The notes beneath the pieces are model-generated. The model was not told the origin of the DNA and did no database searches. It saw only the letters and a list, made by a program, of their open reading frames with translations. From IMG/VR virus record IMGVR_UViG_2740892440_000004, positions 1 to 40,921 of that record: a stretch of DNA of 40,921 bases; one strand, 5' to 3'. Each line of letters opens with the position of its first letter. The stretch's first letter is position 1. The translations under genes were made by a program, and so were the position numbers. Source of the stretch: a virus. Lineage: Duplodnaviria; Heunggongvirae; Uroviricota; Caudoviricetes. Below, one piece after another: positions 13,579-37,336 of this stretch.

Positions 13579-13579
13579 A

Positions 13580-16161: not shown

Positions 16162-16192
16162 TCTTATTTAGACGATTTTTTAAACAATCAAT

Positions 16193-16240
16193 AGAGAAGT
16201 TTTTGAATTTTATCATTCTTCCAGTAACAAAAACTTCTCT
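16193..16240. terminator. long-loop hairpin between convergent cargo genes (possible bidirectional terminator)
   Basis: 12-bp inverted repeat agagaagttttt / aaaaacttctct separated by 24 nt, flanked by T-runs. Confidence 0.3.
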
Positions 16241-16253
16241 TTTATAACACCGC

Positions 16254-16711
16254 TCAGGCTATTCCAGAATAGGCTTTGCTTACTTCACTATGCCTTGTGC
16301 CGCAATGCCTCAAAATAACAAGGCCATGTTGCAGTAACGCCTCACTACGTTCAGGTTCAAACCATTTCCCGTTAAATTTTCCTCCGTGAAAAAGATTGTT
16401 TCTTACACGGCGGATTAACAAAAAAAGAAATTTTGCTAAATCTTTTTCTTGTGGTAAAGAATCATCCAAACTAAAGAGTCATCTTCTATGATTTGTTTTT
16501 TGGGTGGGTGTTCTTTAAAGTAGGTGATAGCAGCAATTAGCTCTGGATCAGTTGTGTTATTTATGATTTCAGAAACTTGCTTTGCATACTCATCCCAGTT
16601 CGCTTTAGCATCTTTTATTTTATGATGAAGTCCACATGCCTTAAGGCAATATTCATAACGTGAAAACTCTCTAAAGAATTCATAACATAAATTATCTAGA
16701 TTATTCTCCAT
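16254..16711 (-). pseudogene. HEPN-like small protein (Rx4H motif), split into two ORFs by an apparent 1-bp G-run contraction
   Basis: ORFs 16436-16711 and 16254-16469 overlap; restoring one G in tttgg-atg fuses them into approx. 160 aa; C-terminal part contains IRRVRNNLFHGG, i.e. R-x4-H as in HEPN RNase motifs. Confidence 0.45.
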
Positions 16712-16740
16712 GAACTATATCTCCATGTATAACAAGTTAA

Positions 16741-17940
16741 CTAATATTGATTGCGCTCGTACACTTTTTGGCCCCACCAATTCATAAGTCCTATTCGTTG
16801 CTCAAGGTAAGTTGAACGATTATATGCTCTGCGCACTTCATTTTTATCACTATGTGCAAGAGCAGCCTCAATTACATCTGCATTAAAACCCGCTTCATTT
16901 AATGCGGTGCTGGCAATTGAACGCAATCCATGAGCAACCAATCTACCACCAAATCCAATCCTTTTTAAAGCAGCATTTGCCGTCTGGCTATTCATTGGTT
17001 GCTTTGGGTCATTCCGACTCGGGAAAACATGTTCACGATGGGCACTGATTAGCTTCATCACATCAAGAATCTCTAATGCCTGAGGAGATAGAGGGACTAT
17101 GTGTTCCCGCTTAGCCTTCATTCGTTCAGCTGGGATAGTCCAGAGCTTTGCATCGAGATCGAGCTCAGCCCACCTAGCACCGGAAGCCTCAGAAGGACGA
17201 ACTAGAGTCAGGAGTTGCCACTCAATGAGGCAGCGAGTCGGAACAGACAAATTTGACATGACGAGAGAACGCATCAGCATAGGCAATTCTTCTGGGCGCA
17301 ACGTAGGCATATTTTGTTTTTTTGGCTTCTCAAAGGCCATTCCAATGCCTGATGCTGGATTGGCATCAATAAGACCAGTATTTACGGCATAAATCATTAT
17401 CTCGTTAACACGCTGCACCAACCGGCGCACCGTCTCCAGCGCCCCACGAGCTTTGATCGGTTCAAGGGCTTCAACCAGTGTTCGGGCTTTGATTTGCTGG
17501 ACAGGGATCTCCCCGATGGTGGGGAATACGTCTTTTTCCAGTGAACGCCATATATCTTTAGCGTAATCATGGGTAACGCTTTTGCTTTTGAGCTGGAACC
17601 AGTTAGCGGCGACCGTCGAAAAAATACTGTCCAGAGCGATTTGCTGCTGTTCCTCTGCAACTTCAGCTTGAATTTGCGGGTCGATTCCGTTGGCTAATAG
17701 GGCAAGGTAATCTGCTCTTAACCCTCGGGCATCAGCAAGAGAAAGGGCAGGAAAAGCACCAAGTCCCATCATAGTCCGCTGTTTTGTTGCTGGGCGTTGA
17801 TAGCGAAAGCGCCAGAGTTTCTTGCCGCTAGTTTTCACTATCAGGAAAAGCCCATCGCCATCATGCAGCGTTAGATCCTTCTCTAACGCTTTCGCGCGCA
17901 GAACTTCGGTGTTGGTCAGGGGGCGTGTTGTCCGTGCCAC
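16741..17940 (-). CDS. int: P4-type tyrosine integrase
   Basis: 399 aa; catalytic segments AHGLRSIASTAL (HxxR) and RAYNRSTY (Tyr); positioned next to the tmRNA-derived att fragment. Confidence 0.9.
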   Translation of the reverse strand: MARTTRPLTNTEVLRAKALEKDLTLHDGDGLFLIVKTSGKKLWRFRYQRPATKQRTMMGLGAFPALSLADARGLRADYLALLANGIDPQIQAEVAEEQQQIALDSIFSTVAANWFQLKSKSVTHDYAKDIWRSLEKDVFPTIGEIPVQQIKARTLVEALEPIKARGALETVRRLVQRVNEIMIYAVNTGLIDANPASGIGMAFEKPKKQNMPTLRPEELPMLMRSLVMSNLSVPTRCLIEWQLLTLVRPSEASGARWAELDLDAKLWTIPAERMKAKREHIVPLSPQALEILDVMKLISAHREHVFPSRNDPKQPMNSQTANAALKRIGFGGRLVAHGLRSIASTALNEAGFNADVIEAALAHSDKNEVRRAYNRSTYLEQRIGLMNWWGQKVYERNQY

Positions 17941-21877: not shown

Positions 21878-22078
21878 ATGCTGACGAAAGAACCATCATT
21901 TGCATCGCTGCTGGTAAAACAAAGTCCGGCAATGCACTACGGTCACGGCTGGATCATGGGTGAGGATGGTAAACGCTGGCATCCGTGCCGTTCGCAAGAT
22001 GAATTGTTGGCAGAACTATCAACGAAAAAACGGGGGAACAAATGGCTATTGAAGGCGCTGCGGCGACTGTTCCATTAA
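21878..22078 (+). CDS. hypothetical early protein (66 aa)
   Basis: ATG with GAGG RBS; may be fused with the next ORF if a G is missing from the GGGGG run at about 22030. Confidence 0.4.
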   Translation: MLTKEPSFASLLVKQSPAMHYGHGWIMGEDGKRWHPCRSQDELLAELSTKKRGNKWLLKALRRLFH

Positions 22079-22383
22079 GCCCAGGTGAACGCCTGAATGG
22101 ACTTAATCATATTGCGGAATTAAGGGCGAAAGTATTTGGCCTGAATATTGAGTCAGAGCTTGAGCGGTTTATTAAAGATATACGTGATCCACGGGATGTT
22201 AATTATGAACGAAATAAACGAGCACTGGCTGCTATATTCTTTATAGCAAAAATTCCAGCTGAACGTCATAGCATCAGCATTAATGAGCTGACCACTGACG
22301 AAAAGCGGGAGTTGATTAAAGTAATGAATCATCTTCGTGCAGTGGTGAGCTTATTTCCCAGACGGCTAGCCATGCCGAATTAA
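22042..22383 (+). CDS. hypothetical early protein (113 aa)
   Basis: ORF with G-rich RBS. Confidence 0.45.
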   Translation: MAIEGAAATVPLSPGERLNGLNHIAELRAKVFGLNIESELERFIKDIRDPRDVNYERNKRALAAIFFIAKIPAERHSISINELTTDEKRELIKVMNHLRAVVSLFPRRLAMPN

Positions 22384-22450
22384 CCAATTAATGAAATTCA
22401 TGGCGTAAACCCGCCGGGTATTCCTTTATCTAAATTCAGGAGAATTGATT

Positions 22451-22684
22451 ATGCGTAATATTGAAACCCTCTCGACTAAAACCGGACCGGATGACGCAGG
22501 ACTTAATATTTTACTGACAGAGGCTCGTCTGGAAGAACGTCGGGCAAGAGCTGAAGCAATGGCAGCTCGCCTTGATAGCCTTGCGTGCCATATCACATCC
22601 CGCCAGCTAAACCACGTTGAAGCGGCTGAACTGCTGCGTGTGGCAGCTGAAGCAATCCAGAACGAAGCGCAGGAGATCCACTAA
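22451..22684 (+). CDS. hypothetical early protein (approx. 77 aa)
   Basis: AGGAG RBS 6 nt upstream of ATG 22451. Confidence 0.45.
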   Translation: MRNIETLSTKTGPDDAGLNILLTEARLEERRARAEAMAARLDSLACHITSRQLNHVEAAELLRVAAEAIQNEAQEIH

Positions 22685-22911
22685 TGGCTGATGCAATGGA
22701 TCTCGTACAGCAGCGCGTTGAAGAAGAACGCCAGCGTCATATCCGTGCTGCCCGTGCCAAAACGCCGGGCGTGTCCCGCGTGCTTTGCATTGAGTGTGAA
22801 GCGCCAATTCCGCCAGCACGCCGCCGTGCCATTCCGGGTGTGCAGCTTTGCATTACCTGTCAGGAAATCGCAGAGCTGAAAGGCAAACATTACAACGGAG
22901 GTGCTGTATGA
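22684..22911 (+). CDS. TraR/DksA-family C4 zinc-finger protein
   Basis: CIECEAPIPPARRRAIPGVQLCITCQE, a C-x2-C...C-x2-C motif typical of phage TraR/DksA-like proteins. Confidence 0.7.
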   Translation: MADAMDLVQQRVEEERQRHIRAARAKTPGVSRVLCIECEAPIPPARRRAIPGVQLCITCQEIAELKGKHYNGGAV

Positions 22912-23765
22912 GCACCATCCTGAAATGGGCGGGAAATAAAACCGCCATTATGTCCGAACTGAAAAAGCATCTTCCTGCTGGCCCGCGACTGGTTGAACCT
23001 TTCGCGGGTTCCTGTGCAGTGATGATGGAGACGGAGTACCCCAGCTATCTTGTTGCGGATATTAATCCTGATTTAATCAACCTCTATAAAAAGGTTGCTG
23101 CTGATTGTGAATCGTTTATATCTCGCGCCAGAGTTTTATTTGAGATCGCAAACAGGGAGGTGGCTTATTACAACATAAGGCAGGAGTTTAATTACTCAAC
23201 TGAAATTACTGATTTCATGAAAGCGGTATATTTCCTGTATCTCAATCGTCACGGTTACCGTGGTTTATGTCGCTATAACAAGAGCGGGCATTTCAACATT
23301 CCCTACGGTAATTATAAAAATCCGTATTTCCCTGAAAAAGAAATTCGCGCATTTGCAGAAAAAGCCCAGCGAGCAACGTTTATCTGCGCCAGCTTTGATG
23401 AAACGCTGGCGATGTTGAAGGCGGGGGATGTGGTGTATTGCGATCCGCCGTATGACGGTACGTTTTCCGGCTATCACACTGATGGTTTCACTGAAGATGA
23501 CCAGTATCACCTGGCATCCGTTCTTGAACATCGGTCATCAGAAGGACATCCGGTCATTGTTTCTAACAGTGACACATCCCTGATCCGTTCGCTGTATCGC
23601 AATTTTACTCACCACTATATCAAGGTAAAACGCAGCATCGGTGTGGCAGCTGGCGAGGGTAAATCAGCAACAGAAATCATTGCTGTTTCCGGGCCGCGCT
23701 GCTGGGTGGGATTTGATTATTCGCGTGGCGTGGATAGTTCTGCCGTGTACGGAGTACGTGCATGA
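22908..23765 (+). CDS. dam: DNA adenine methyltransferase (Dam-like, N6-adenine)
   Basis: N-terminal LKWAGNK...EPFAGSCAV (SAM-binding) and catalytic DPPY ([13 protein letters not shown]). Confidence 0.85.
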
Positions 23766-26175
23766 GCCATGCCGATATGAACAACTGCTGCGGCTTTAAC
23801 GAGGCTGCCGCAGCGTTCTCATGGAACAGCCCGAAAAAGGCCATTAACCCTTATCTGGACCCGGCGGAAGTTGCGCCGGTTTCTGCGCTTTCAAACCTGA
23901 TCGCTCTGTACGCTGCCGATAACGAGCAGGAACACCTGCGCCGCGAGGCACTGAGTGATCAGGTCTGGGAGCGTTATTTCTTTAATGAATCCCGTGATCC
24001 TGTCCAGCGCGAAATGGAGCAGGATAAGCTCATTAGTCGGGCAAAGCTGGCGCATGAGCAGCAGCGTTTTAATCCAGATATGGTCATTCTGGCGGACGTC
24101 AATGCCCAGCCTTCCCATATCAGCAAGCCGCTGATGCAACGTATTGAATACTTCAGCAGCCTGGGCAGGCCAAAGGCTTATTCCCGCTATTTGCGTGAGA
24201 CGATTAAGCCATGTCTGGAGCGACTGGAGCATGTACGCGACAGCCAGCTATCTGCATCTTTTCGTTTTATGGCAAGCCATGTAGGGCTGGACGGCCTGCT
24301 GATTCTGCCTGAAATGAGTCAGGATCAGGTGAAACGCCTGTCTACTCTTGTCGCTGCGCATATGAGCATGTGTCTTGATGCCGCTTGTGGTGATTTGTAC
24401 GCCACCGATGACGTTAAGCCAGAAGAAATCCGCAAAACATGGGAAAAGGTGGCAGCGGAAACCCTGCGTCTGGATGTTATTCCGCCTGCGTTTGAGCAAC
24501 TCCGTCGGAAAAGAAACCGCCGTCAACCCGTGCCCTATGAACTCATTCCGGGTTCGCTGGCGCGTATGTTGTGTGCCGACTGGTGGTACCGGAAATTATG
24601 GAAAATGCGTTGCGAATGGCGGGAAGAGCAGTTGCGTGCTGTCTGCCTGGTCAGCAAAAAAGCATCTCCCTATGTCAGCTATGAAGCCGTGATTCATAAA
24701 CGTGAGCAGCGCCGCAAGTCACTGGAGTTTTTCCGTTCTCATGAACTGGTGAACGAAGAGGGCGACACGCTGGATATGGAAGACGTGGTAAACGCCAGCA
24801 GCAGCAACCCGGCGCACCGCCGCAATGAGATGATGGCCTGTGTTAAAGGTCTGGAGCTTATCGCGGAAATGCGCGGTGACTGCGCCGTTTTCTACACCAT
24901 TACCTGTCCGTCACGTTTCCATTCCACGCTCAATAACGGCAGACCAAACCCAACCTGGACAAATGCGACGGTAAGACAAAGCAGCGATTATCTGGTCGGC
25001 ATGTTTGCTGCATTTCGTAAGGCGATGCACAAAGCCGGGTTGCGCTGGTATGGCGTGCGGGTGGCTGAGCCGCATCATGACGGTACAGTTCACTGGCACC
25101 TGTTGTGTTTCATGCGCAAAAAAGACCGCCGCGCCATTACTGCATTGTTGCGTAAGTTTGCCATCCGTGAAGACCGCGAGGAACTGGGTAATAACACTGG
25201 TCCACGCTTTAAATCTGAGCTGATAAACCCGCGCAAAGGAACGCCGACAAGCTACATCGCGAAATACATCAGTAAGAACATTGACGGGCGTGGTCTGGCT
25301 GGCGAGATCAGCAAGGAAACGGGTAAATCCCTGCGTGATAACGCTGAATACGTTAATGCCTGGCGTCTCTGCATCGTGTACAGCAATTCCGCTTCTTTGG
25401 TATTCCGGGACGTCAGGCTTACCGTGAACTTCGCTTGCTGGCTGGTCAGGCGGCAAGGCAACAGGGTGACAAAAAAGCAGGTGCGCCGGTACTGGATAAC
25501 CCGCGTCTTGATGCCATTCTGGCTGCTGCTGATGCTGGTTGTTTTGCCACCTACATCATGAAGCAGGGCGGCGTACTGGTTCCCCGCAAATATCACCTCA
25601 TCAGAACCGCTTATGAAATCAACGAAGAGCCGACCGCCTATGGCGATCACGGCATTCGTATTTATGGCATCTGGTCACCCATTGCAGAGGGCAAGATCTG
25701 CACTCATGCAGTGAAGTGGAAAATGGTTCGTAAGGCCGTTGACGTTCAGGAGGCGGCAGCCGACCAGGGCGCTTGCGCCCCTTGGACTCGTGGCAATAAC
25801 TGTCCCCTTGCTGAAAATTTGAACCAACAGGAGAAAGATAAATCAGCTGATGGGGACCCCAGAACGGACATTACCAGCATGGATGACAAGGAGTTGCACG
25901 ATTACCTGCACAGTATGAGCAAAAAAGAGCGCCGGGAACTGGCAGCAAGGTTATGCCTGGTGAAACCGAAACGGCGTAAAGACTACAAACAGCGAATTAC
26001 AGACCATCAGCGACTGCAGCTCGTGTATGAGCTGAAGTCCAGAGGATTTGATGGCAGCGAGAAAGAGGTCGATTTACTCCTTCGCGGAGGCAGTATTCCG
26101 TCAGGAGCAGGCCTGCGTATCTTCTATCGGAGCCAGCGTTTGCAGGAAGATGATCAGTGGCGGAACCTGTATTAA
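23762..26175 (+). pseudogene. P2 gpA-family replication initiation endonuclease, frameshifted at about 25363
   Basis: HUH-like [11 protein letters not shown] and catalytic tyrosines YIAKYISKN; frame a ends in junk after ...EYVNAW while frame b continues [29 protein letters not shown]...; restoring one G in tgg-cg fuses approx. 805 aa. Confidence 0.8.
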
Positions 26176-26267
26176 TTACGCGGGTTAACAATTCGTGCTC
26201 TTAATAATACCAGGCATATCAGGCTGATGAATGTAAAAAAACGTTTTACATCAGTAAGATTATTATA

Positions 26268-26287
26268 TACTGTAAATATAAACAGTG
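26268..26287. promoter_or_regulatory. LexA (SOS) box
   Basis: TACTGTAAATATAAACAGTG fits CTG-N10-CAG SOS-box consensus; lies 40 bp upstream of the small ORF / DinI-like operon. Confidence 0.6.
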
Positions 26288-26328
26288 GTTATACATACAG
26301 TATTGCGTGTGGTGTCATAGGAGGAAAG

Positions 26329-26517
26329 ATGCAGGACTATTTTTTGGAGTCTTTGAAGCTCCAGCGCATTGATTTTTTTCTTAAGCTTGTAGCGGCTAGT
26401 GAGTGTAGTGATGAAGAGAAGGGGCTGGCTCTGCAGTGGGTTTCTGAATTGACTGATGAACTCATGGCAAAAATCAGAACCCACGAATACAACCGCTCAA
26501 TGGATGTCATCAGCTGA
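26329..26517 (+). CDS. hypothetical small protein (62 aa) in SOS-controlled operon
   Basis: GGAGG RBS then ATG 26329. Confidence 0.45.
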   Translation: MQDYFLESLKLQRIDFFLKLVAASECSDEEKGLALQWVSELTDELMAKIRTHEYNRSMDVIS

Positions 26518-26527
26518 GGTGACTTTT

Positions 26528-26761
26528 ATGCGCATTGAAATAATGATCGATAAAGAGCAGAAGATTAGCCAGTCTACCCTGGACGCCCTTGAATCCGAGC
26601 TTTACCGCAATCTGCGCCCCCTGTATCCCAAAACGGTAATTCGCATTCGCAAAGGTAGCTCTAACGGTGTGGAACTAACCGGACTGCAACTGGACGAAGA
26701 AAGAAAACAAGTGATGAAAATTATGCAGAAGGTGTGGGAAGACGACAGCTGGCTGCATTAA
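26528..26761 (+). CDS. DinI-like protein (Tum/antirepressor C-terminal-domain-like)
   Basis: 77 aa MRIEIMIDKEQ...LYRNLRPLYPK...VWEDDSWLH resembles the DinI family (MRIEV...E.W....W). Confidence 0.7.
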   Translation: MRIEIMIDKEQKISQSTLDALESELYRNLRPLYPKTVIRIRKGSSNGVELTGLQLDEERKQVMKIMQKVWEDDSWLH

Positions 26762-26799
26762 GAAACGTTGCTGGCGTCTGAACTTGCTTCTGGCGTCAG

Positions 26800-26995
26800 C
26801 AAGGTTGAACAACGAGCCCTTGCGAGGCGTTAGCTCTGTAGTGCATGTCTATGCCGCATGAGATCGCATGATCGTTTGAGGATCGTTTTTGCTAAGGCCC
26901 GCCAGAACTGGCGGGCTTTTGCGTAGCTCATGCAGGTGCATGAAAACCACTACATAAAGCGGGCAGGCGTGGCGGGGATACGAGCGCGCGAAATC
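26800..26995. other. cos-like packaging site of the 186/P2-like prophage (candidate)
   Basis: non-coding; core GGCGTGGCGGGGATACGAGC at 26966-26985 shares its first 13 nt with the recalled 186 cohesive end GGCGTGGCGGGGAAAGCAT; homologous to the satellite block at 12290-12445. Confidence 0.4.
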
Positions 26996-27131
26996 CCTTA
27001 CTATGAAGAAAAGTGTGACTTAATTACCAACCAGGGTTAAGCTTTGATTCATATTGAGAGTAAGTTGAACTAGAATATTTTAACAGAGAGGAACCACTGA
27101 GCGGTGGTGTTTTTTTGAACAAGGAGCAATT

Positions 27132-27827
27132 ATGAAATTGATTGAACAGACGCATCAGATTAATTTTTTCACAAATAATAATGATATAGTTCCAAATACA
27201 CTAACTATTGGATCTATGCTTGATAAGATTGGAAAATTTGGATTTGTACCTACTTTTGGTCAGGAGATTAATGCCATCACTGGTGAGAAAAAGCAAATTC
27301 TTATCATGGTAGATACCAATCAAACAGTAAGAGTCGAGTTTCCTAGCCATGGAATCATTTTTAATGGTTTGGGGGGGGAACCTCAAGCGTTTTCAGAAAT
27401 GGTTCTATCTATATCTAGGGAACTACAAAACGTATTTCCGATGAAAAAAGGAAATAGGATAGCTGTTCTGAATTCACGTATCTATCAAGGGGATGAATCT
27501 GTTTACTCTTCGCTTTACAATGCTTTGTTTACCTATAAAGGTGTTAATCCATTTGAGTGGGACAATCGTATAGCTGTAAGGAAAAATATTGAAGAGTATC
27601 AGGAAGAAATTAATAGTATTAGTACAATTAGACGCGCTGAAATTTCAGCTCCATTTTTGAATAATGGTATGCCAAGTGATTGCGTATTATTTGAAACTGA
27701 TACTAATACTCTTCCTCAAAATGGATATATGCGGTTTGGTTGGGATGAATATATCCGCGTGCTAGAGTTATTGTGTCAGGACAATCTTAAAACTATTGAT
27801 AATTTACAACGCTACACTTCTCTGTAA
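27132..27827 (+). CDS. cargo protein X1 (231 aa), unknown function
   Basis: low-GC ORF, first of three tightly spaced genes between the cos-like site and the portal gene; no recognisable motif. Confidence 0.75.
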   Translation: MKLIEQTHQINFFTNNNDIVPNTLTIGSMLDKIGKFGFVPTFGQEINAITGEKKQILIMVDTNQTVRVEFPSHGIIFNGLGGEPQAFSEMVLSISRELQNVFPMKKGNRIAVLNSRIYQGDESVYSSLYNALFTYKGVNPFEWDNRIAVRKNIEEYQEEINSISTIRRAEISAPFLNNGMPSDCVLFETDTNTLPQNGYMRFGWDEYIRVLELLCQDNLKTIDNLQRYTSL

Positions 27828-27836
27828 GGTGATGCT

Positions 27837-28484
27837 ATGGTAAAGAATAGTTTTATAATAAGTGATGAAAAGCCTTTTGGCTTACCTAAGTTTAAAAATG
27901 GGGTAAGTTCAATAGGTGCATTTTCTGATTATTATGATGGTAACAATATCATTTACGCTGATATTAAAAGAAATGAGCTGTCACATAGCAAAACAAATGG
28001 TGGCTTTCAATTAGAGACTGAGTCAATAAATCAAGGTTCGTCAACTAAGCAGAACTTTGAAATTCAGGTTTCAAAATGTACCTCTAGACTAATTGAGTTA
28101 ACATGTTCAGAAGATTACATTGAAGGCGAGATAAGCAAGACACAGATTTACATGGAGTTCTTGTATGATAAAAATCAGGATTTATTCCAAGAGTCCTTTC
28201 AAAGGACATGGGTACAATTGTACAGAATGAATGATCAACATGTAAAGAACTTCATTAATTTTGCATCGACTATTGAATATGAATGGTTAGGTAATAAAGC
28301 TGACGCTATGATTATGGGAGTTTGTTCTCTTGAGAATGAACTTATATTTGAGGCAGCGATCCGTGCAGTTGAGTCTTGGGGGGAAAAATCATTTATTCCA
28401 GTCCTTGAAAGAATGAGGAAATTTGATGCTGATTGGGTGGAAGAATATAAAGAAGCAGTTATAGGATATTTGAGAAGTCTATAA
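27837..28484 (+). CDS. cargo protein X2 (215 aa), unknown function
   Basis: AGGTGA RBS; 9 bp after X1; no recognisable motif. Confidence 0.75.
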   Translation: MVKNSFIISDEKPFGLPKFKNGVSSIGAFSDYYDGNNIIYADIKRNELSHSKTNGGFQLETESINQGSSTKQNFEIQVSKCTSRLIELTCSEDYIEGEISKTQIYMEFLYDKNQDLFQESFQRTWVQLYRMNDQHVKNFINFASTIEYEWLGNKADAMIMGVCSLENELIFEAAIRAVESWGEKSFIPVLERMRKFDADWVEEYKEAVIGYLRSL

Positions 28485-29005
28485 TGACATATTTATTGCG
28501 TAAAATATCCCATAGTAAATGGGAATGTAATAAAGGTAGAGCACCTGACAATATATCCGCAGACGCGATAACAGGTTGCACAAGGACCTCTAATAACACC
28601 TTGTCAGTTTGGGTTTCTGACTCTATCGATTTTCAAGATGAATCGGTAGAGAAAATTATTGTTGCCCTTGCCACCACGATGTCAGAGCCAGCTACGATAG
28701 ATTTGGTTTGGCTTGATTCACAATGGTTTGAAGATAAAGGTATTGATATTTCTCGTACTGAAGGAAATACTTTGTATAAATCAGTTAACCATTTGCATCG
28801 AGATCTGTCAGAATTAAATCATAGAAAGCTTGCTGAGGTTGGTGAACATATACTTGAGCAATTAAAATCTAAGGATTATTATAAAAGAATCCTCAAGAGT
28901 GAACTTATAGCCTTAGTTTTTAAATGGCAGCAGCGAGATGGTGATTTTGATATTGATGATTTGGGACAGAAGTGGTCTAAGTCATTAAATAAACTGATTA
29001 ACTGA
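28484..29005 (+). CDS. cargo protein X3 (173 aa), unknown function
   Basis: start overlaps X2 stop (TAATG); no recognisable motif. Confidence 0.75.
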   Translation: MTYLLRKISHSKWECNKGRAPDNISADAITGCTRTSNNTLSVWVSDSIDFQDESVEKIIVALATTMSEPATIDLVWLDSQWFEDKGIDISRTEGNTLYKSVNHLHRDLSELNHRKLAEVGEHILEQLKSKDYYKRILKSELIALVFKWQQRDGDFDIDDLGQKWSKSLNKLIN

Positions 29006-29010
29006 TTTTC

Positions 29011-29040
29011 AAAAGCCCTCGATTGAGGGCTTGCTTTAAA
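29011..29040. terminator. bidirectional rho-independent terminator between cargo operon and portal gene
   Basis: hairpin agccctc-gatt-gagggct flanked by AAAA upstream and TTTAAAAATT downstream. Confidence 0.55.
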
Positions 29041-30063
29041 AATTGTATGTGTTAAATGTTATTATTTTATCGTCTAACCAATTATTTAACTCATCCAATC
29101 TTTTTTGCAATGGTATTAGTTCGTTACGAACAAACACACGGCTTGCCTTCTCCACATCCCCAAACCCCCCAACATTATTCGGCATAATCCCCATCATTTG
29201 CGGCGGCACACGATGCGCTGCCATCATGTCATCGCGGCTGACATTTTTGATACTCAGAAACTCATCCTTCGCCGCGACTTCTGACAACGGGATGATCTGA
29301 AGCCCGTCCTTTTTGCCGTTAGGCGAGTACATAAACAGGTTGCGGAAGTTGCCAGGGCCTTTGGCGCTTTTCATCGCATTGCGGAGGTTGTTCACATCCT
29401 CCTGGTTCTGCGCGGCATCGGTCATGTACATGATGAAGCTGCATGACTGCCGTTAATGTAATACTTGCGGCGGAACAGCGTGGCGGACTCGTTGAGCAGG
29501 GCTGATGGAATGGCAGAAAGATAACCTGGCAGGCCGTAGATCTCCTGGTTGATGTCCGGTTCCATCAGATGAAAAATGCTGCCTTTCGTGAACTGATACG
29601 GCTGGGTTGTCATACCGTATTGCACAAACCAGTAGGTATCCAGGTCTAACCCGCGTCGGGTGTATTTTGCCAGAGCAGGCTCAAGGGCGATAACTTCACC
29701 GAAGCGGTTCGTGCGTTTCTCCAGGTAGGCGTTACCAAATACCAGATAGTCCTGCACAAAACGTGAAAAAGCCTGCTGGCTGAGCAGCGGGTGAGGGATG
29801 TAGGTACTGGTCAGAATGTTGCATTTCACCGCAATTGGTGAGCTGTGATGCACGGCGGCGCGGAAGGTTCGTGCCAGTCCGTCAAAGCTGACGGGCGGCT
29901 CATACCAGCGGTCCATCTGTACGCATTCCACATAGTCCAGCAGTTCACGGCGGTCCAGAACAGGAACGGGATCGCCAAAGCTGAATGCTTCGGCTGAAGT
30001 TTGGCTTTTATGCTTGAGCTGATTCGTCGCCGCAGCGCGGTTTTTCTTACTCTTTCCCATCAA
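29036..30063 (-). pseudogene. Q: portal protein (P2 gpQ family), frameshifted near 29430
   Basis: two contiguous same-strand ORFs (213 + 131 aa = 344 aa, the gpQ length); restoring one G in gcagc fuses ...YINGSHA to ...MYMTDAAQ. Confidence 0.8.
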
Positions 30064-31826
30064 AAAATCTCCACAATATTGCTGGTATTGGCGGACTCGC
30101 CCTGCAGCGGTTCGTTAAACAGTGCGTGCATTGTTGCCCAGGCCAGATCGGCGTGGCTGGCTTCTTCGCTGCGGCTGGCCTCATAGGTCGGGCGGTTGCC
30201 GCTGGCAGTGGTGGCGCGACGGATTGCCATAAAGGACTGCGCTATGTCGGTGTGCCCGGCGTCAAACTCCAGGCGGCGGTGGCTAATAATGTCGTAGGCC
30301 TTGAGTACCAGGGCGTTTTTAACGTTGGGGTTGTAGACAAACTCCCGGACGGCAGGAAAAAACGCTTTCACGTTCTCGTAAACCCCGTGACCGACGCCGG
30401 TTGAGTCGATACCGATGTATGTCACGTTGTACTGTTCAGTCAGTTTTTTGATGGCGTTAGCCTGGGCGCGGAAGTCCATCCCGCGCCACTGGTGACGCTC
30501 AAGAATGCGGAACTTACCGCCCGGCACGGCTGGCGGTGCCACCACCACGCACCCGGCGCTGTCGCCGTTTTGCGTACCTTTTGCCGGGTCATAACCGATC
30601 CACACTTCGCGCCAGCCAAACGGGCGCAGGGCCAGTGCATGAAAGTCGGTCCAGACTTCCCAACTGTCCACCATGCACGCCTGCAGCTCGCTGAGCGGGA
30701 ACACGGACGCGAGATCGTCCACAAACTCGCACATCAGCAGGTTCTGGTATTCGTCCGGGCTGTACTCCATGCGCAACTGATCGAGGTCGAAAAGGTTACA
30801 TCCGCCGCGCACTGCATCTTCCACGGTGACTATCTGGCGGTATTGCCCGTCTGCGCACAGCAGGCCGGGGGCCAGATTGCTGTGGGACAGGTCGATGTCC
30901 ACCTTATCGGCTTTATTGCGCCCACGGTTGAACAGCGCACCGGACCAGAACGGATAAGCACTGTGTGTCAGGCTGGATGGCGTGGAAAAATAGGTTTGTC
31001 GCCATTTTTTGTGAATAGCCATACCAGAAGCCACTTTGCGCAGCTCCTGGAATTTCGGTATCCAGAAATATTCATCCAGATACAGGTTGCCGTGGTAACT
31101 CTGGGCCGTGCGGGCATTGGTGCCGAGGAAGTAAAGCGTGGCTCCGTTAGGAAGCACCATCGGATCGCCTTTCAGCTCCACCTCGACTTCTTTGGCGAAG
31201 TCTATGATGTACTGCTTAAAGACGTGAGCCTGTGCCTTGCTGGCGGAAAGAAAAATCTGGTTACGTCCGGTAAGCAGAGCGTCAATCAGGGCTTCACGGG
31301 CAAAGTAAAAGGTCGCGCCGATCTGGCGTGACTTCAGCAGGTTGCGGATGCGGTTGGTTTTTCCGGCTTCCCACCAGTGGCGCTGGTAGTTGAACATGGA
31401 GGAATGGAAGATTTCTTCCAGCTTCTCAATCTGCTCATCGGTGAAAACATTCTTTTCCGGCTGACGGCGCGGGCCTTTGTTGCGGTTGGCGACGTTAGGG
31501 TTTAAGTCGGATTCGTTGCCGCCATTGTTAAACTTGCCGATCCGCGCGTGGCGCTCCGACTGGCGCGCCAGCAGGTCAATCTCTTTGAAATCTTTCCCTT
31601 CTTTGTGCTCCTTCATAATGAGCTGGCAGTAGCGTGCGGCGGTGGTGAGCTGCATCTGATCCAGCGGCCCATAGTCACCCCACTTGTCGCGTTTTTTCCA
31701 GCTGTGAACGGTTGCAACTTTCTCGCCCAGCATTTCAGCAATGCGGGCTACGCGGTATCCCTGAAAGTACAGCAGCATGGCCTGCCGACGGGGATCGAGA
31801 TCTGCGGGTGTCAGTGTGGTGTTCAT
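30060..31826 (-). CDS. P: terminase large (ATPase) subunit (P2 gpP family)
   Basis: 588 aa; position divergent from capsid operon; resembles P2 gpP as recalled. Confidence 0.85.
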   Translation of the reverse strand: MNTTLTPADLDPRRQAMLLYFQGYRVARIAEMLGEKVATVHSWKKRDKWGDYGPLDQMQLTTAARYCQLIMKEHKEGKDFKEIDLLARQSERHARIGKFNNGGNESDLNPNVANRNKGPRRQPEKNVFTDEQIEKLEEIFHSSMFNYQRHWWEAGKTNRIRNLLKSRQIGATFYFAREALIDALLTGRNQIFLSASKAQAHVFKQYIIDFAKEVEVELKGDPMVLPNGATLYFLGTNARTAQSYHGNLYLDEYFWIPKFQELRKVASGMAIHKKWRQTYFSTPSSLTHSAYPFWSGALFNRGRNKADKVDIDLSHSNLAPGLLCADGQYRQIVTVEDAVRGGCNLFDLDQLRMEYSPDEYQNLLMCEFVDDLASVFPLSELQACMVDSWEVWTDFHALALRPFGWREVWIGYDPAKGTQNGDSAGCVVVAPPAVPGGKFRILERHQWRGMDFRAQANAIKKLTEQYNVTYIGIDSTGVGHGVYENVKAFFPAVREFVYNPNVKNALVLKAYDIISHRRLEFDAGHTDIAQSFMAIRRATTASGNRPTYEASRSEEASHADLAWATMHALFNEPLQGESANTSNIVEIF

Positions 31827-31872
31827 GGCACAAACCTACAGCCTTGAATGAAGGCTTTCCCCGCCTGCGGTT

Positions 31873-31890
31873 TGTGTGGTTGTCGGTACA
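31873..31890. promoter_or_regulatory. TGT-N12-ACA late-promoter activator site in the divergent P/O intergenic region
   Basis: TGTGTGGTTGTCGGTACA. Confidence 0.45.
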
Positions 31891-31968
31891 AATACCGCGC
31901 ATTGTTTCACTGCCCCCATCACCGCAACCATAAGGCTCCAGTAAGTTTTTTCTAACGGAGCACGGCTC

Positions 31969-32802
31969 ATGACAGTGAAAGCAAAGCGTTTTCGCATCGG
32001 GGTGGAAGGTGCCACCACCGACGGACGCGAAATCCAGCGTGAATGGCTGGAACAGATGGCAGCCAGCTACAACCCGGCGGTGTATACCGCGCTGATTAAC
32101 CTTGAGCACATCAAGTCTTATCTGCCGGACAGCACCTTTAACCGCTACGGCAAGGTGACGGCGCTGTTTGCTGAAGAAATCACGGAAGGTCCGCTGGCAG
32201 GCAAGATGGCGCTGTATGCCGACGTTGAGCCAACGGAGTCCCTGGTGGAGCTGGTGAAAAAAGGCCAGAAATTATTCACCTCTATGGAAGTCAGCCCGAA
32301 GTTTGCTGATACGGGCAAAGCCTACCTGGTCGGCCTGGCTGCCACTGATGATCCAGCCAGTCTGGGTACGGAAATGCTGACATTCAGCGCCAGTGCAGCC
32401 CATAACCCGCTGGCAAGCCGCAAGCAGAATCCTGCCAATCTCTTTACCGCTGCAGAGGAAACGGTGATCGAACTGGAAGAAATCCAGGATGACAAACCGT
32501 CCCTGTTTGCCCGTGTCACGGCGCTGTTCACCAAAAAAGAGCAGTCCGATGATGCCCGGTTCTCTGATGTGCATAAGGCCGTGGAGCTGGTCGCCACTGA
32601 GCAGCAGAACCTGAGCGCACGCACCGAAAAATCCCTGTCTGAGCAGGAAGAACGCCTGTCTGAACTGGAGACTGCTCTGCAGGAGCAGCAAACCGCTTTT
32701 AACGAACTGGTGAATAAGCTGAGTCATGAAGACAGCCGCCAGGACTACCGCCAGCGTGCAACAGGCGGTAACGCCCCCGCTGACACTCTGACCAATTGCT
32801 GA
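31969..32802 (+). CDS. O: capsid scaffolding protein (P2 gpO family)
   Basis: 277 aa, first gene of capsid operon. Confidence 0.8.
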   Translation: MTVKAKRFRIGVEGATTDGREIQREWLEQMAASYNPAVYTALINLEHIKSYLPDSTFNRYGKVTALFAEEITEGPLAGKMALYADVEPTESLVELVKKGQKLFTSMEVSPKFADTGKAYLVGLAATDDPASLGTEMLTFSASAAHNPLASRKQNPANLFTAAEETVIELEEIQDDKPSLFARVTALFTKKEQSDDARFSDVHKAVELVATEQQNLSARTEKSLSEQEERLSELETALQEQQTAFNELVNKLSHEDSRQDYRQRATGGNAPADTLTNC

Positions 32803-32818
32803 TGGAGCACAAAACCTG

Positions 32819-33877
32819 ATGAAGAAGAATACCCGCTTTGCTTTTAACGCTTACCTGCAGCAGCTGGCGCGTCTGAACGGTGTGGCAGTTGAAGAACTGT
32901 CCAGCAAGTTCACCGTGGAGCCGTCTGTACAGCAGACGCTGGAAGACCAGATCCAGCAGTCCGCCGCTTTCCTGACGCTGATTAACGTCACGCCAGTGAC
33001 TGAGCAGTCCGGTCAGCTGCTGGGGTTGGGTGTTGGCAGCACCATTGCCGGAACCACTGATACCACCGCGAAAGAGCGTGAACCTGTCGATCCGACGCTG
33101 ATGGTCGATGTGGAATACAAATGCGAGCAGACCAACTTTGACACGGTGCTGACCTACGCGAAGCTGGACCTGTGGGCGAAATTTCAGGATTTCCAGGTGC
33201 GTATCCGTGACGCCATCGTGAAACGTCAGGCACTGGACCGCATCATGATCGGCTTTAACGGCGTGAAGCGTGCGAAAACCTCCAACCGTAGTGAAAACCC
33301 GCTGCTGCAGGATGTGAACAAAGGCTGGCTGCAGAAAATCCGTGAGGATGCACCGGATCACGTCATGGGCAGCACCACCACAGGCGGTGAAACCACACCG
33401 GGCGCGGTGAAAGTCGGTAAAGGTGGCGAATATGCCAACCTGGACGCCGTGGTGATGGATGCCGTCAATGAGCTTATCGACGTGGTCTACCAGGACGATG
33501 ACGATCTGGTGGTGATTTGCGGTCGTGAACTGTTGTCTGACAAGTATTTCCCACTGGTCAACAAAGAGCAGGAAAACAGTGAAAAACTCGCTGCCGATAT
33601 GATCATCAGTCAGAAACGCATGGGTGGCCTGCAGGCCGTGCGTGCGCCGTTCTTCCCGCCGAATGCACTGCTGATCACCCGTCTGGATAACTTGTCCATC
33701 TACTGGCAGGAAGACACCCGCCGCCGTTCAGTTATCGACAACCCGAAACGTGACCGGATTGAAAACTTTGAATCCGTTAATGAAGCCTATGTGGTTGAGG
33801 ACTACCGCTGCGCCGCACTGGTGGAAAACATCCAGATTGGTGATTTCAGCGCCGCCGCAGCAGAAGCCGGAGCGTAA
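32819..33877 (+). CDS. N: major capsid protein (P2 gpN family)
   Basis: 352 aa following scaffold gene. Confidence 0.85.
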   Translation: MKKNTRFAFNAYLQQLARLNGVAVEELSSKFTVEPSVQQTLEDQIQQSAAFLTLINVTPVTEQSGQLLGLGVGSTIAGTTDTTAKEREPVDPTLMVDVEYKCEQTNFDTVLTYAKLDLWAKFQDFQVRIRDAIVKRQALDRIMIGFNGVKRAKTSNRSENPLLQDVNKGWLQKIREDAPDHVMGSTTTGGETTPGAVKVGKGGEYANLDAVVMDAVNELIDVVYQDDDDLVVICGRELLSDKYFPLVNKEQENSEKLAADMIISQKRMGGLQAVRAPFFPPNALLITRLDNLSIYWQEDTRRRSVIDNPKRDRIENFESVNEAYVVEDYRCAALVENIQIGDFSAAAAEAGA

Positions 33878-33880
33878 ACC

Positions 33881-34531
33881 ATGAGCCTGAGTCCCGCACG
33901 GCAGCATCGCCTGCGCGTTCAGGCTGAACAGGCCGCCCGTGAGGGCGGCAGTGTTCGCCACGCGTCGGGCTATGACCTGATGCTGCTGCAGCTGTCGGAA
34001 GACCGCCGCCGTCTCAAGGGCGTTCAGTCCACGGTGAAAAAAGCGGAAATAAAGGTGGAGCTGCTGCCGAAATATGCCGCCTGGGCGGAGGGCGTCCTGG
34101 CTGCCGGAGGCGCTCAACAGGATGACGTGCTGATGTACGTGATGCTGTGGCGCATTGATGCCGGAGATTATGCCGGGGCGCTGGAGATCGGGCGTCATGC
34201 CCTGCGTCATGGCTGGGTGATGCCTCTGGGTAACCGCAACGTGCAGACCGTGCTGGCAGAGGAAATGGCAGATGCAGCGCAGAGCGCAATGCTTGCCGCT
34301 ACCGGCTTTGATGCCGATCTGTTGCTGCAGACGCTGGAGCTGACAGACGGTCTGGATATGCCGGACCAGTCACGGGCGCGTCTGCATAAAGCGATTGGCG
34401 CTGTCCTGAGTGAAAGCAATCCGGCTTCCGCCCTTAATCATCTCAACCATGCGTTACAGCTCGATCCCCGCTGTGGCGTGAAAAAAGACAAACAGCAGCT
34501 GGAGCGCAGACTGCGCAATGACAGCCGCTGA
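33881..34531 (+). CDS. M: terminase small/endonuclease subunit (P2 gpM family)
   Basis: 216 aa following capsid gene. Confidence 0.75.
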   Translation: MSLSPARQHRLRVQAEQAAREGGSVRHASGYDLMLLQLSEDRRRLKGVQSTVKKAEIKVELLPKYAAWAEGVLAAGGAQQDDVLMYVMLWRIDAGDYAGALEIGRHALRHGWVMPLGNRNVQTVLAEEMADAAQSAMLAATGFDADLLLQTLELTDGLDMPDQSRARLHKAIGAVLSESNPASALNHLNHALQLDPRCGVKKDKQQLERRLRNDSR

Positions 34532-34626
34532 CAGAACGTGCCCCCGCGCACGGGCGGCACGGGGTGGCGAAAGGCATAGCCACATCAAAATCCCGTCCAC
34601 CGCCCTCTATTTCAGGAGAAAGCAGC

Positions 34627-35091
34627 ATGAAGTTTGTTGCGCCAGAACAGGCACCGGAACAGGCGGAAATCATCAGAAATACGCCGTTCTGGCCTGATGT
34701 GGACCTGTCGGAGTTTCGCAGCGTGATGCGCACTGACGGCACGGTGACGCAGCCGCGTTTAAAGCAGGTTGCCCTGTCGGCAATTTCGGAGGTCAACGCA
34801 GAGCTGTATGAGTTTCGCAGACGTCAGCAGATGCTGGGATATGTGTCGCTGGCTGAGGTTCCGGCGGAACAGCTGGACGGCAAAAGTGAGCGCATTCAGC
34901 ACTATTTCAACGCGGTTTACTGCTGGGCACGCGCCATGCTCAACGAACGATACCAGGACTATGACGCCACGGCGTCCGGTGTGAAGCGGGGCGAGGAACT
35001 GGCGGAAGCCAGCGGTGATTTGTGGCGTGACGCCCGCTGGGCCATCAGCCGGGTGCAGGACGCGCCGCACTGCACAGTGGAGCTTATCTGA
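34627..35091 (+). CDS. L: head completion/stabilisation protein (P2 gpL family)
   Basis: AGGAG RBS then ATG 34627; 154 aa. Confidence 0.75.
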   Translation: MKFVAPEQAPEQAEIIRNTPFWPDVDLSEFRSVMRTDGTVTQPRLKQVALSAISEVNAELYEFRRRQQMLGYVSLAEVPAEQLDGKSERIQHYFNAVYCWARAMLNERYQDYDATASGVKRGEELAEASGDLWRDARWAISRVQDAPHCTVELI

Positions 35092-35294
35092 TGAAAGTGC
35101 GTGCGCATCAGTATGACACGGTGGACGCGCTTTGCTGGCGTCATTACGGGCGCACGCAGGGTGTCACGGAGCAGGTACTGAAGGCAAATCCGGGGCTTGC
35201 CGAATACGGCCCCTTTTTACCTCACGGGCTGCAGGTGGAGCTGCCGGACATTCCGACCACCACCACCGTGCAGACCGTCCAGCTATGGGACTGA
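35091..35294 (+). CDS. X: tail protein X (P2 gpX family)
   Basis: 67 aa, ATGA overlap with L. Confidence 0.75.
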   Translation: MKVRAHQYDTVDALCWRHYGRTQGVTEQVLKANPGLAEYGPFLPHGLQVELPDIPTTTTVQTVQLWD

Positions 35295-35297
35295 ATT

Positions 35298-35513
35298 ATG
35301 ACGCTTGAGCGAATCAGCGCCTTTATCACGTATTGCATCGCCGTCGTGCTGGCCTGGCTGGGCGATTTGTCCATCAAGGATGCCTCAACGCTGGGCGGCC
35401 TGATGATTGGTGTGCTGATGCTGGCTATCAACTGGTACTACAAACATAAAGCCTACCAGCTTCTGCGCGACGGGCAGATCTCGCGGGAGGACTATGAATC
35501 CATCAATCGTTAA
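35298..35513 (+). CDS. holin-like small membrane protein
   Basis: 71 aa with two hydrophobic helices and charged C-terminus, immediately upstream of the lysozyme gene. Confidence 0.6.
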   Translation: MTLERISAFITYCIAVVLAWLGDLSIKDASTLGGLMIGVLMLAINWYYKHKAYQLLRDGQISREDYESINR

Positions 35514-36005
35514 ACGCTGCCTTGTCGGGGCCGTGCTGGCTATTACTGCCACGCTGCCGGGTTTTCAGCAGCTTCACACCTCCGTGGAGGGGCTGAAACT
35601 GATTGCTGATTACGAAGCTGTCGTCTGCAGCCGTATCAGTGCAGCGCGGGTGTCTGGACCGACGGCATTGGTAATACGTCGGGCGTCATTCCCGGCAAAA
35701 CCATTACGGAGCGACAGGCAGCAGAAGGGCTGATCTCCAACGTGCTGCGTGTGGAGCGGGCGCTGGAAAGGTGTGTGAAGCAACAGCCGCCGCAGAAGGT
35801 GTATGACGCTGCGGTGTCGTTTGCCTTCAACGTGGGAACGGGCAATGCCTGCAGTTCCACACTGGTGAAATTACTCAATCAGCGGCGCTGGGCGGATGCG
35901 TGCCGACAGTTGCCGCGCTGGGTTTATGTGAAAGGTGTTTTTAATCAGGGGCTGGATAACCGCCGTGCGCGGGAGATGGCCTGGTGCTTACAGGGAGCAA
36001 ACTGA
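35494..36005 (+). pseudogene. endolysin (T4-lysozyme-like, GH24), frameshifted at about 35620
   Basis: third frame restores the lysozyme catalytic region YEG-CRLQPYQCSAGVWTDGIGNT; frame as sequenced stops at 35733; one G missing in gaa-g-ctgt. Confidence 0.8.
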
Positions 36006-36006
36006 A

Positions 36007-36384
36007 ATGAAAAAGAAAGTAATCAGCGGGCTGTTTCTGATGTTATGGATGGCGCTGTTGATCGCAGCAATGGTGTATCCGCAGGGGATTTTTCCGGTAC
36101 TGGCAGCGTCCGGTGTCTGGGTAGCCTGTCTGCTGACATGGGCGGTAATTCCGGTAGCACTGGCTGCGTCAATTAAGAACGGCCCGCTCTGGCAGGAGTT
36201 GAGGGCATCTTTGCTAAAGACCATTACCCGAAAAGAAAACGTATTTATCAGCTGGGTGATGCGATTGCTGATTGTCGTAAGTTTCGCCTGGACGGGGTGG
36301 GCTATTACCCTGGTCTTTTATCTGCTGACCGTTATTGCCTTCTGGATGATCCGTAATCAGATTGCGCAACAGGTAGCAGCATGA
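36007..36384 (+). CDS. LysA-like membrane protein (lysis timing)
   Basis: 125 aa with four hydrophobic segments, position after lysozyme. Confidence 0.6.
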   Translation: MKKKVISGLFLMLWMALLIAAMVYPQGIFPVLAASGVWVACLLTWAVIPVALAASIKNGPLWQELRASLLKTITRKENVFISWVMRLLIVVSFAWTGWAITLVFYLLTVIAFWMIRNQIAQQVAA

Positions 36385-36809
36385 ACCGGTTGCTGCTGGT
36401 TGTGCTGGCGTTATTACTGGCGGCGCTGGGCTGGCAGACGTGGCGGCTGGCTGATGCCAGCCAGACCATCAGCACGCAGGCAGACGAGCTTCGGAGCAAA
36501 AGCCAGGCACTGGCAAAGAGCAACAGCCAGCTTATCAGCCTGTCCATTCTGACTGAAACCAACAACCGGGAGCAGGCGCGGCTCTACGCCGAAGCAGAAC
36601 AGACCAGCGCACTGCTGAGACAACGACAACGCCGGATGGAGGAACTGAAACGTGAGAACGAGGATTTACGCCGCTGGGCTGATACTCCTTTGCCTGCTGA
36701 CATTATCCGGCTGCGGGAACGTCCGGCACTCACCGGAGGTGCAGCTTACCGTCAGTGGTTGTCCGCGAGTGACGCCGTGTCGGCTGGAGCAGGCAGCGCC
36801 GCGCACTAA
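36381..36809 (+). CDS. LysB / Rz-like inner-membrane spanin
   Basis: 142 aa; N-terminal TM helix then coiled-coil-like region. Confidence 0.7.
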   Translation: MNRLLLVVLALLLAALGWQTWRLADASQTISTQADELRSKSQALAKSNSQLISLSILTETNNREQARLYAEAEQTSALLRQRQRRMEELKRENEDLRRWADTPLPADIIRLRERPALTGGAAYRQWLSASDAVSAGAGSAAH

Positions 36810-36942
36810 CGGTGATCTGAACGCATTGCTGGATGAAACGGAGGTCGCCTGGGCGGTCTGTGCAGACAAAGTGGACATGATTATTGCGTGTCAGGAGCGA
36901 AACAGTGAACAAACCACAATCCCTGCGCCACGCCCTCAATAA
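36652..36942 (+). CDS. LysC / Rz1-like outer-membrane lipoprotein spanin, embedded in and extending beyond lysB
   Basis: GGAGG RBS then GTG; lipobox LTLSGC; alternative frame overlapping lysB. Confidence 0.55.
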   Translation: MRTRIYAAGLILLCLLTLSGCGNVRHSPEVQLTVSGCPRVTPCRLEQAAPRTNGDLNALLDETEVAWAVCADKVDMIIACQERNSEQTTIPAPRPQ

Positions 36943-37336
36943 AGCGGTACCTTATGTCCGCAATAACCCGGACAAACTGCATCTGTTTGTGGATAACGGT
37001 TCGCTGGTTGCCACGGGGGCCAGCTCCATGTCATGGGAGTACCGCTATACCCTGAACGTGGTGATAGAGGATTTCAGCGGCGACCAGAATCTGCTGATGG
37101 CCCCGGTTTTGCTGTGGCTTCGGGATAACCAGCCCGATGCCATCAATAACCCGGCGTTACGGGAAAAGCTATTCACCTTTGAGGTGGATATTTTGCGCAA
37201 CGATGTCTGTGATATCAGCCTTAACCTGCAATTGACGGAACGTGTGCTGGTCAGTACTGACGGCAGTGTGTCGAGTGTTGAAGCTGTAGCAGAACCCGAT
37301 GAACCTGAAGAAATGTGGACGGTGAAACGTGGCTGA
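36905..37336 (+). CDS. R: tail completion protein (P2 gpR family)
   Basis: AGGAG RBS then GTG 36905; approx. 143 aa. Confidence 0.7.
   Translation: MNKPQSLRHALNKAVPYVRNNPDKLHLFVDNGSLVATGASSMSWEYRYTLNVVIEDFSGDQNLLMAPVLLWLRDNQPDAINNPALREKLFTFEVDILRNDVCDISLNLQLTERVLVSTDGSVSSVEAVAEPDEPEEMWTVKRG

Follow-up and report, generated by a model that had tools for sequence, protein, structure and literature searches.

The three genes at positions 27132-29005 of the window, by which we mean the whole 40,921-nt stretch of Caudoviricetes DNA that was analysed (IMG/VR record IMGVR_UViG_2740892440_000004), form a strictly co-inherited and highly mobile cassette, intact here, which moves among prophages (P2-like and other), small plasmids, and islets with an integrase. 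There is good support for regarding the trio as a candidate uncharacterised defence (or toxin-antitoxin-like) system. A first-pass annotation, made from the sequence alone, had singled out this operon as a possible defence or exclusion system; we found the trio to be more widespread than that annotation could know, and its third gene provides a testable effector hypothesis.

The genes, which we call A (27132-27827, 231 aa), B (27837-28484, 215 aa), and C (28484-29005, 173 aa; coordinates from the ORF list), all lie on the plus strand and are packed exactly as first described: a 9-nt gap (ggtgatgct) separates the TAA stop of A from the ATG of B, and the stop of B overlaps the start of C in the sequence TAATG. 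B is translationally coupled to C. The GC content is 0.33-0.37 across the operon (0.346 as a whole) against 0.52-0.59 in the flanking phage genes, in agreement with the AT-richness reported earlier. All three proteins are acidic, and none has a 19-residue window hydrophobic enough for a membrane helix.

Upstream, the cos-like block of the first-pass annotation proved to contain a P2-type cos core (GGCGTGGCGGGGATACGAG, plus strand, 26966-26984; one match in a pattern search, 0.01 expected), which bounds the cargo slot on its left and lies outside the operon; the P2-hotspot clone from E. coli E1114 carries an identical cos stretch (Rousset et al. Table S2A). Two overlapping sigma-70-like matches on the plus strand at 27048-27081 (TTCATA-17-TAGAAT and TTGAGA-16-TATTTT, each 9/12 in a consensus scan) are the candidate operon promoter. 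A terminator scan found a terminator-like hairpin, ACCACTGAGCGGTGGT, followed by a run of seven T (plus strand, 27093-27116), which ends a few bases 5' of the ribosome-binding site of A (AAGGAG, plus strand, 27121-27126, by direct reading of the sequence) and may serve as a leader attenuator or as the end of an upstream transcript. The hairpin and T-run are not kept in 16 other loci, and we thus rejected a conserved leader or attenuator 5' of A. At the other end, between the convergent stops of C (29005) and the portal gene (29036), lies an 8-bp hairpin rich in G+C (29013-29033; RNA fold −14.2 kcal/mol, z = −3.4), which is probably a transcription stop common to both; the bidirectional terminator proposed earlier is plausible, although the hairpin failed the terminator scan because its T-runs are short on both sides.

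The window matches the P2-like prophage of E. coli CV839-06, in which the annotated order runs from integrase and CI, through further genes, to Dam, gpA, a 62-aa ORF, DinI, three hypothetical proteins, portal, terminase, and capsid. The operon thus occupies the cos-portal interval at the P2 gpA-portal hotspot, as defined by Rousset et al. 2022 (PMC9122126). The earlier comparison with the position of old/tin is right as to the hotspot but not as to the side, because the cargo here lies on the portal side of cos, whereas P2 old/tin lies between cos and gpA and the Rst_3HP cargo of E. coli E1114 is likewise on the gpA side (cloned sequences, Rousset et al. Table S2A). The operon DNA is rare, being found in 4 of 5,426 complete E. 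coli genomes and absent from deposited phage genomes. It is intact and identical in three of these genomes; in the fourth, ETEC1747, a 1-nt deletion splits A and leaves B and C intact. The exact A, B, and C proteins were found on roughly 420-560 contigs of public assemblies, always under the name "hypothetical protein".

Beyond these near-identical copies, the three genes stay together. We fetched about 45 loci (several of them redundant), which were reached via A or C and whose ORFs were then matched against separate HMMs for A, B, and C; all of them carry A-B-C in the same order. The matches fell on three adjacent co-directional ORFs in 20 of the 20 loci of the first set, a colinear A-B-C was found in 18/18 IMG/VR viral contigs (scanned with a narrower C alignment), and every locus fetched later, including Larkinella-like and metagenome loci, was likewise colinear. 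Wherever the spacing of B and C was compared, the two genes touch or overlap (0 to −13 nt). The recurrence and co-occurrence of the triplet, which the first-pass annotation had put forward as a check, is thus found in every locus examined, the P2-like slot among them. The hosts include several Gammaproteobacteria and a Larkinella relative, and the operon keeps a GC content of 0.30-0.39 in all of them against 0.39-0.61 in the flanks, remaining at 30-39% even where the flanks reach 50-61%.

The genomic contexts are diverse. Among temperate phages, the trio occurs in P2-like prophages of E. coli, Klebsiella, Erwinia, and metagenomes; in a lambdoid-type prophage of E. coli O101, between dnaB and a DUF1367/HNH region; and in the Acinetobacter phages Ab105-1phi, AbTJ, and MD-2021a, 3' of the tail-fibre gene and a gene annotated as a "secretion activator". 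It is the main cargo of small plasmids of about 4-8 kb, including a 4,375-bp ColE1-type Klebsiella plasmid on which it is the sole sizeable cargo and a 7.5-kb MOBQ plasmid of Acinetobacter. Integrase remnants accompany it in a Shewanella islet, a resolvase gene lies 5' of it in the Larkinella-like locus, and one metagenome copy adjoins ParE/Phd and an integrase. The Vibrio alginolyticus copy adjoins another trio, composed of an integrase and proteins of 582 and 681 aa, whose likeness to a Gamma-Mobile-Trio island is confined to size and layout. Finally, in Microbulbifer and Acinetobacter the cassette appears as a bare, phage-free insertion between housekeeping genes. Because the same trio is carried on small plasmids and at phage-free chromosomal sites, it does not belong to the structural or morphogenetic genes of the phage, an alternative which the first-pass annotation had named.

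The family is also large. A word-indexed protein search returned 22 clusters for A, 6 for B, and 53 for C, and an exhaustive search with a C profile returned 1,863 representatives of 50%-identity clusters at E ≤ 0.001 (856 at E ≤ 1e-10), the best 150 of which are all small stand-alone proteins. Two of the remote representatives checked, from a Larkinella sp. and a metagenome, again belong to trios, the A and B profiles matching their first and second genes; in another remote trio (L022) the first gene is a true TIGR04255 protein and the second is B-like, and a fourth representative (P0110) sits on a 1.4-kb contig showing only a B-like gene 5' of C. Given this number of C clusters and the remote trios, the window operon is one member of a large family without a name.

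At the sequence level, the first-pass annotation's failure to recognise any defence family or signature stands. PADLOC-DB 2.0.0, which dates from 2023, covers old, PARIS, DarTG, PD-T4-9/CmdTAC, and the PDC candidates, and none of its families matched A, B, or C at E ≤ 1. The remote trios L021 and L022 were also without a PADLOC match, and ten remote C relatives gave one weak match only (PDC-M02B, E = 4.5e-4, 17 bits). Neither Pfam nor NCBIfam gave a meaningful match for A, B, or C, and a Pfam scan of every member of the three alignments found no recurring family. In PHROGs, the three proteins match three families of unknown function. Profile searches of PDB sequences with A, B, and C returned nothing save chance matches to eS25 and AcrIF14 at E > 0.2. 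It is at the level of predicted structure that the earlier statement no longer holds, since C there appears ADP-ribosyltransferase (ART)-like and A guanidino-kinase-like; neither fold assignment is supported by a profile method.

The AlphaFold2 model of C (pLDDT 88.5) is predicted to consist of an N-terminal ART-like alpha/beta domain followed by C-terminal helices. A structure search with this model placed about 20 different structures of the ADP-ribosyl clan among the top 52 matches, far more than would be expected by chance for one fold, and its weak matches include the RES, MbcT, ParT, and DarT toxins. The near-universal residues of C are R6, K7, K12, W13, D27, T30, T35, S41, W43, H105, and D107; among 147 diverse relatives, R6 is conserved in 97%, S41 and W43 in 100%, H105 in 99%, and D107 in 88%. 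In the model, R6 falls on predicted strand 1, S41 on strand 2, and H105 and D107 on strand 5. The canonical catalytic Glu of R-S-E enzymes is absent as such, with H105 and D107 found on strand 5 instead. Sequence comparison did not recover the ART likeness: the ART-family Pfam models (clan ADP-ribosyl) matched neither C nor its 45 close and 10 remote relatives, and profiles of 45 or 148 sequences found no match to C among PDB sequences. A Foldseek search of C against predicted viral structures (BFVD) returned no match at E ≤ 0.001. We consider C a candidate effector or toxin with a predicted, divergent ART fold.

A is a cytoplasmic protein predicted to fold as a two-layer alpha/beta sandwich with an internal repeat, and its best structural match is the catalytic domain of guanidino (arginine/McsB) kinases, from which a guanidino-kinase-like fold may be predicted. 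The residues P40, R109, E142, D190, N192, T193, and R201 are invariant across the family. The match to the kinases is at the level of the fold only, with 6-11% identity (a value of 8% is also given), and the predicted sheet also resembles TBP-like non-enzymes. Unlike phosphagen kinases, A has no N-terminal helical domain; unlike phosphagen and protein-arginine kinases generally (arginine kinase, McsB), it has no Pfam or NCBIfam match, and Pfam ATP-gua_Ptrans matched neither A nor any of 22 relatives at E ≤ 10. Membership of A in TIGR04255, the family of the first gene of remote trio L022 alone, was considered and rejected, as A and 10 diverse A-like proteins gave no NCBIfam match with HMMER and the hhalign probability was 1%.

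B is divided into an N-terminal part of about 95 aa that is hypervariable and polar (14-50% identity to relatives) and a conserved C-terminal part of about 120 aa (20-74% identity) bearing the motifs EDYIEGEISKTQ and NEAAIRAxESW. There are weak hints from sequence that the C-terminal part may be HEAT-like: Pfam HEAT_2 was matched weakly in the B family (E = 0.25, in 1 of 12 members), and an HHblits match to HEAT is given for B with a probability of 50.7 in Table S10 of the DefensePredictor study (PMC13092281). B has no significant Pfam match and no detected Xre/HTH domain. That B might be the inhibitor of C is a guess from the gene order and the coupling of the two genes.

Among known systems, several bear comparison with the trio. 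CmdTAC (PD-T4-9) defends by means of three components, a toxin, an antitoxin, and a chaperone, and includes an mRNA ADP-ribosyltransferase. The likeness to A-B-C lies in three small cytoplasmic proteins, a toxin of ART fold and an abortive-infection type of action (both only predicted for the trio), and carriage on E. coli mobile elements; however, the predicted fold of A is guanidino-kinase- or TBP-like rather than SecB-like, the gene order differs in that the candidate toxin comes last in A-B-C, and A, B, and C are without any PADLOC match. RES-Xre, ParST, and MbcTA are toxin-antitoxin pairs with ART-clan toxins acting on NAD+ or Prs, whereas here C has no Pfam RES match, its conserved residues are R-S-HxD rather than R-E-S, B has no detected Xre/HTH domain, and a third conserved gene, A, is present. 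DarTG differs as well, both in its partners and in that no DarT (DUF4433) or macrodomain signature was found in A, B, or C. Rst_3HP of E. coli E1114 ("hp + hp + hp") shares the P2 gpA-portal hotspot and is likewise made up of three hypothetical proteins that lack domains; it protects against P1 (Rousset et al. 2022, PMC9122126). Its proteins are of 333, 359, and 227 aa rather than 231, 215, and 173 aa, and it lies on the gpA side of cos rather than the portal side; a BLASTP comparison of A, B, and C with the three published E1114 (pFR109) sequences reached no significance (at best 26 bits over 106 aa), and identity with Rst_3HP was thus rejected. Identity with GAPS was rejected for the four validated GAPS systems, which unlike the trio have one or two genes; the comparison covered these four.

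The trio has no place in any named family, yet it has been described in part, whereas the first-pass annotation had put it forward as previously undescribed: it is already listed as a candidate in two published supplementary tables. One is Table S5B of the hotspot study (Rousset et al. 2022, PMC9122126), which gives the locus as system no. 83, with 43 occurrences and no domains, the entry showing A together with an N-terminally truncated C; system no. 83 is not among the systems cloned in that study, and no homologue was found among the tested systems of its Tables S2A and S2B. In Table S10 of DefensePredictor (PMC13092281), B (WP_000240425.1) is a "predicted novel defense gene" with a mean log-odds of 7.07, the stringent cutoff being 4, and the overall validation rate of the units tested there was 45%; a motif search of the supplements of that study gave no sign of the trio among those tested. 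A literature search found no paper text citing the three RefSeq accessions or TIGR04255.

Taken together, these observations lead us to favour, tentatively and at slightly below an even chance, the reading that the trio is an anti-phage abortive-infection (toxin-antitoxin-like) module, a single mobile functional cassette whose role in defence we infer from its context. The position in the hotspot, the neighbourhoods of the Vibrio and ParE/Phd copies, and the score of B argue for the defence candidacy first proposed, although this evidence is contextual throughout, and a plain toxin-antitoxin or addiction role fits equally well with the place of the trio as main cargo of 4-8 kb plasmids. Under such a model, one could envision C as the effector, a divergent ART-fold enzyme with the predicted constellation of R (strand 1), S (strand 2), and H-x-D (strand 5), which upon activation would either draw on NAD+ to modify a target (nucleic acid or protein) or consume NAD+, halting phage replication at the expense of the cell. 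The conserved C-terminal domain of B would keep C inactive, and the fast-evolving N-terminal tail of B might be displaced, degraded, or bound during infection. A, with a putative R/E/D/N/T/R site on its guanidino-kinase-like sheet, could be a ligand sensor or a modifying enzyme that sets the switch. The split A gene of ETEC1747, alongside intact B and C, would fit B, not A, keeping C harmless if the frameshift is real; it could be a sequencing error. A bolder form of the same model, in which a guanidino-kinase-like A controls an R-S-HxD ART through the adaptor B, and the hypervariable tail of B reads infection, would make the trio a three-component immune system with biochemistry new to defence and a new family across Proteobacteria and Bacteroidota; this we regard as conceivable and, on the whole, unlikely.

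The main rival is pure addiction, in which C is a toxin, B its antitoxin, and A an accessory, and the module keeps a plasmid or prophage in its lineage rather than acting against phages. Because the trio is the main cargo of tiny plasmids, above all the 4,375-bp Klebsiella plasmid and also the 7.5-kb MOBQ plasmid of Acinetobacter, an addiction module fits equally well on this point, and the tight coupling of B and C, the copy adjoining a ParE/Phd pair, and the weak structural matches of C to the RES, MbcT, ParT, and DarT toxins of toxin-antitoxin systems are all consistent with it. However, three conserved components exceed a minimal toxin-antitoxin pair, divergent variants are found repeatedly in known phage defence hotspots, B is scored as defensive by DefensePredictor (PMC13092281), and the bare chromosomal copies of Microbulbifer and Acinetobacter have no mobile element to stabilise. 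As a complete account of the trio, we therefore judge stabilisation to be rather improbable; the addiction and defence readings are not exclusive and overlap, because many toxin-antitoxin modules also defend against phage.

Alternatively, the trio could serve the phage that carries it, an ART-like protein modifying components of the host or of competitors or countering host defences. Phages are known to encode ARTs, and Alt, ModA, and ModB of T4 modify host or competitor components in this manner; moreover, at least three kinds of temperate phage carry the trio (P2-like, lambdoid E. coli O101, and Acinetobacter Ab105-1phi-like). Yet it is also present on small plasmids and at phage-free chromosomal sites, it appears to be its own transcription unit, bounded by putative hairpins, in a lysogen-expressed accessory slot, and C shows no similarity to the predicted viral structures in BFVD, which leaves a phage-serving role very unlikely. 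Equally remote is a function outside conflict altogether, with a kinase-like A and two partners acting, for example, in small-molecule metabolism or regulation and the ART likeness of C a coincidence of modelling, given the patchy, horizontally transferred distribution and persistent AT-richness of the trio, its ties to phage hotspots, integrases, and small plasmids, and a number of ADP-ribosyl-clan structures among the top 52 matches of C that is beyond chance for one fold. Both roles, phage-serving and metabolic, are made less likely by the occurrence of the trio outside phages together with its signature of horizontal transfer.

Should the abortive-infection module that we favour prove to protect against phage, it would be a new and broadly distributed addition to the bacterial immune repertoire, and, if the prediction for C is true, it would extend ART-type effectors to an unusual catalytic constellation working with two partner proteins. 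At only 1.9 kb, the intact E. coli copy is easily cloned, which opens the hypothesis to a direct test. Divergent versions of the cassette in the same cos-portal slot of different P2-like phages offer a clean example of cassette swapping at defence hotspots, as variants of C about 55-58% identical to that of the window again lie directly against the portal gene in P2-like prophages.

The A-B-C operon, the three AT-rich genes at 27132-29005, occupies the cos-to-portal side of the gpA-portal hotspot (cos core, 26966-26984), whereas the cargo of P2 (old/tin) and that of E. coli E1114 (the three-hypothetical-protein system Rst_3HP) both lie between cos and gpA. Cargo is thus found on either side of cos, and the hotspot comprises two sub-slots. 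In the packaged linear genome, the operon would occupy the portal-gene end of the chromosome.

E. coli CV839-06 carries a prophage nearly identical to the one in the window. From 25735 to 37038 the two are essentially identical, with one substitution and two one-base indels, whereas across 22042-25734 they differ every few tens of bases, and divergence climbs leftward to ∼14% at the integrase. A mosaic boundary is accordingly placed by the alignment at approximately 25735, and the near-identity to its right, taken with the divergence to its left, shows recent exchange of the half of the prophage bearing the A-B-C cargo. Against CV839-06, single-base deletions are present in the window at 20153, 25362, 29439, and 35617, the last within a stretch annotated as tail protein X and holin in CV839-06. 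Such deletions put the integrase out of frame, break gpA into ORFs at 23762-25561 and 25435-26175, and likewise divide the portal gene by a frameshift into ORFs at 29036-29431 and 29422-30063; the A-B-C operon is free of them. They represent either homopolymer errors in assembly or the marks of a decaying prophage.

A terminator-like hairpin followed by a run of seven T residues (27093-27116) lies a few bases 5′ of the gene A ribosome-binding site and 3′ of the only promoter-like sites (27048-27081). This hairpin, which may act as an attenuator or mark where a transcript from upstream terminates, is not conserved upstream of A in the 16 other loci compared.

Not all copies of the trio are intact. 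In E. coli ETEC1747 (NZ_CP122722.1, 1240288-1242160), a 1-nt deletion splits A into ORFs of 103 and 128 aa, although B and C are whole, and fragments of A (128 aa), B (85 aa), and C (134 aa) are common in draft assemblies of E. coli and Salmonella Agona. Together, the split gene and these fragments suggest that decay or mis-annotation of the trio is frequent. In a remote trio (locus L022/L023, 3600-5576), B-like and C-like genes are retained, and the first gene encodes, instead of an A-like protein, a bona fide member of the NCBIfam family TIGR04255 (E = 3e-35); judged by this substitution, TIGR04255 proteins may correspond to A in function or share a very distant homology with it. The trio of Vibrio alginolyticus (locus L013-L015, 6678-12543) adjoins two small genes that carry no annotation (174 and 152 aa); the genes farther out encode proteins of 681 and 582 aa and an integrase-family protein (438 aa), an arrangement that looks like a Gamma-Mobile-Trio island in size and layout alone.

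Directly adjoining the P2-like helper prophage is a P4-like satellite (6018-17940) encoding a primase-helicase, Icd-like, Psu, and ogr/Delta-like proteins, and an integrase. The psu/delta-int hotspot of this P4-like element is occupied by a Hachiman system, composed of HamA (12637-13578) and the helicase HamB, the latter in two pieces in the window (13580-15514 and 15514-16161), whereas a single 851-aa helicase is annotated at this position in the aligned E. coli D3 record.
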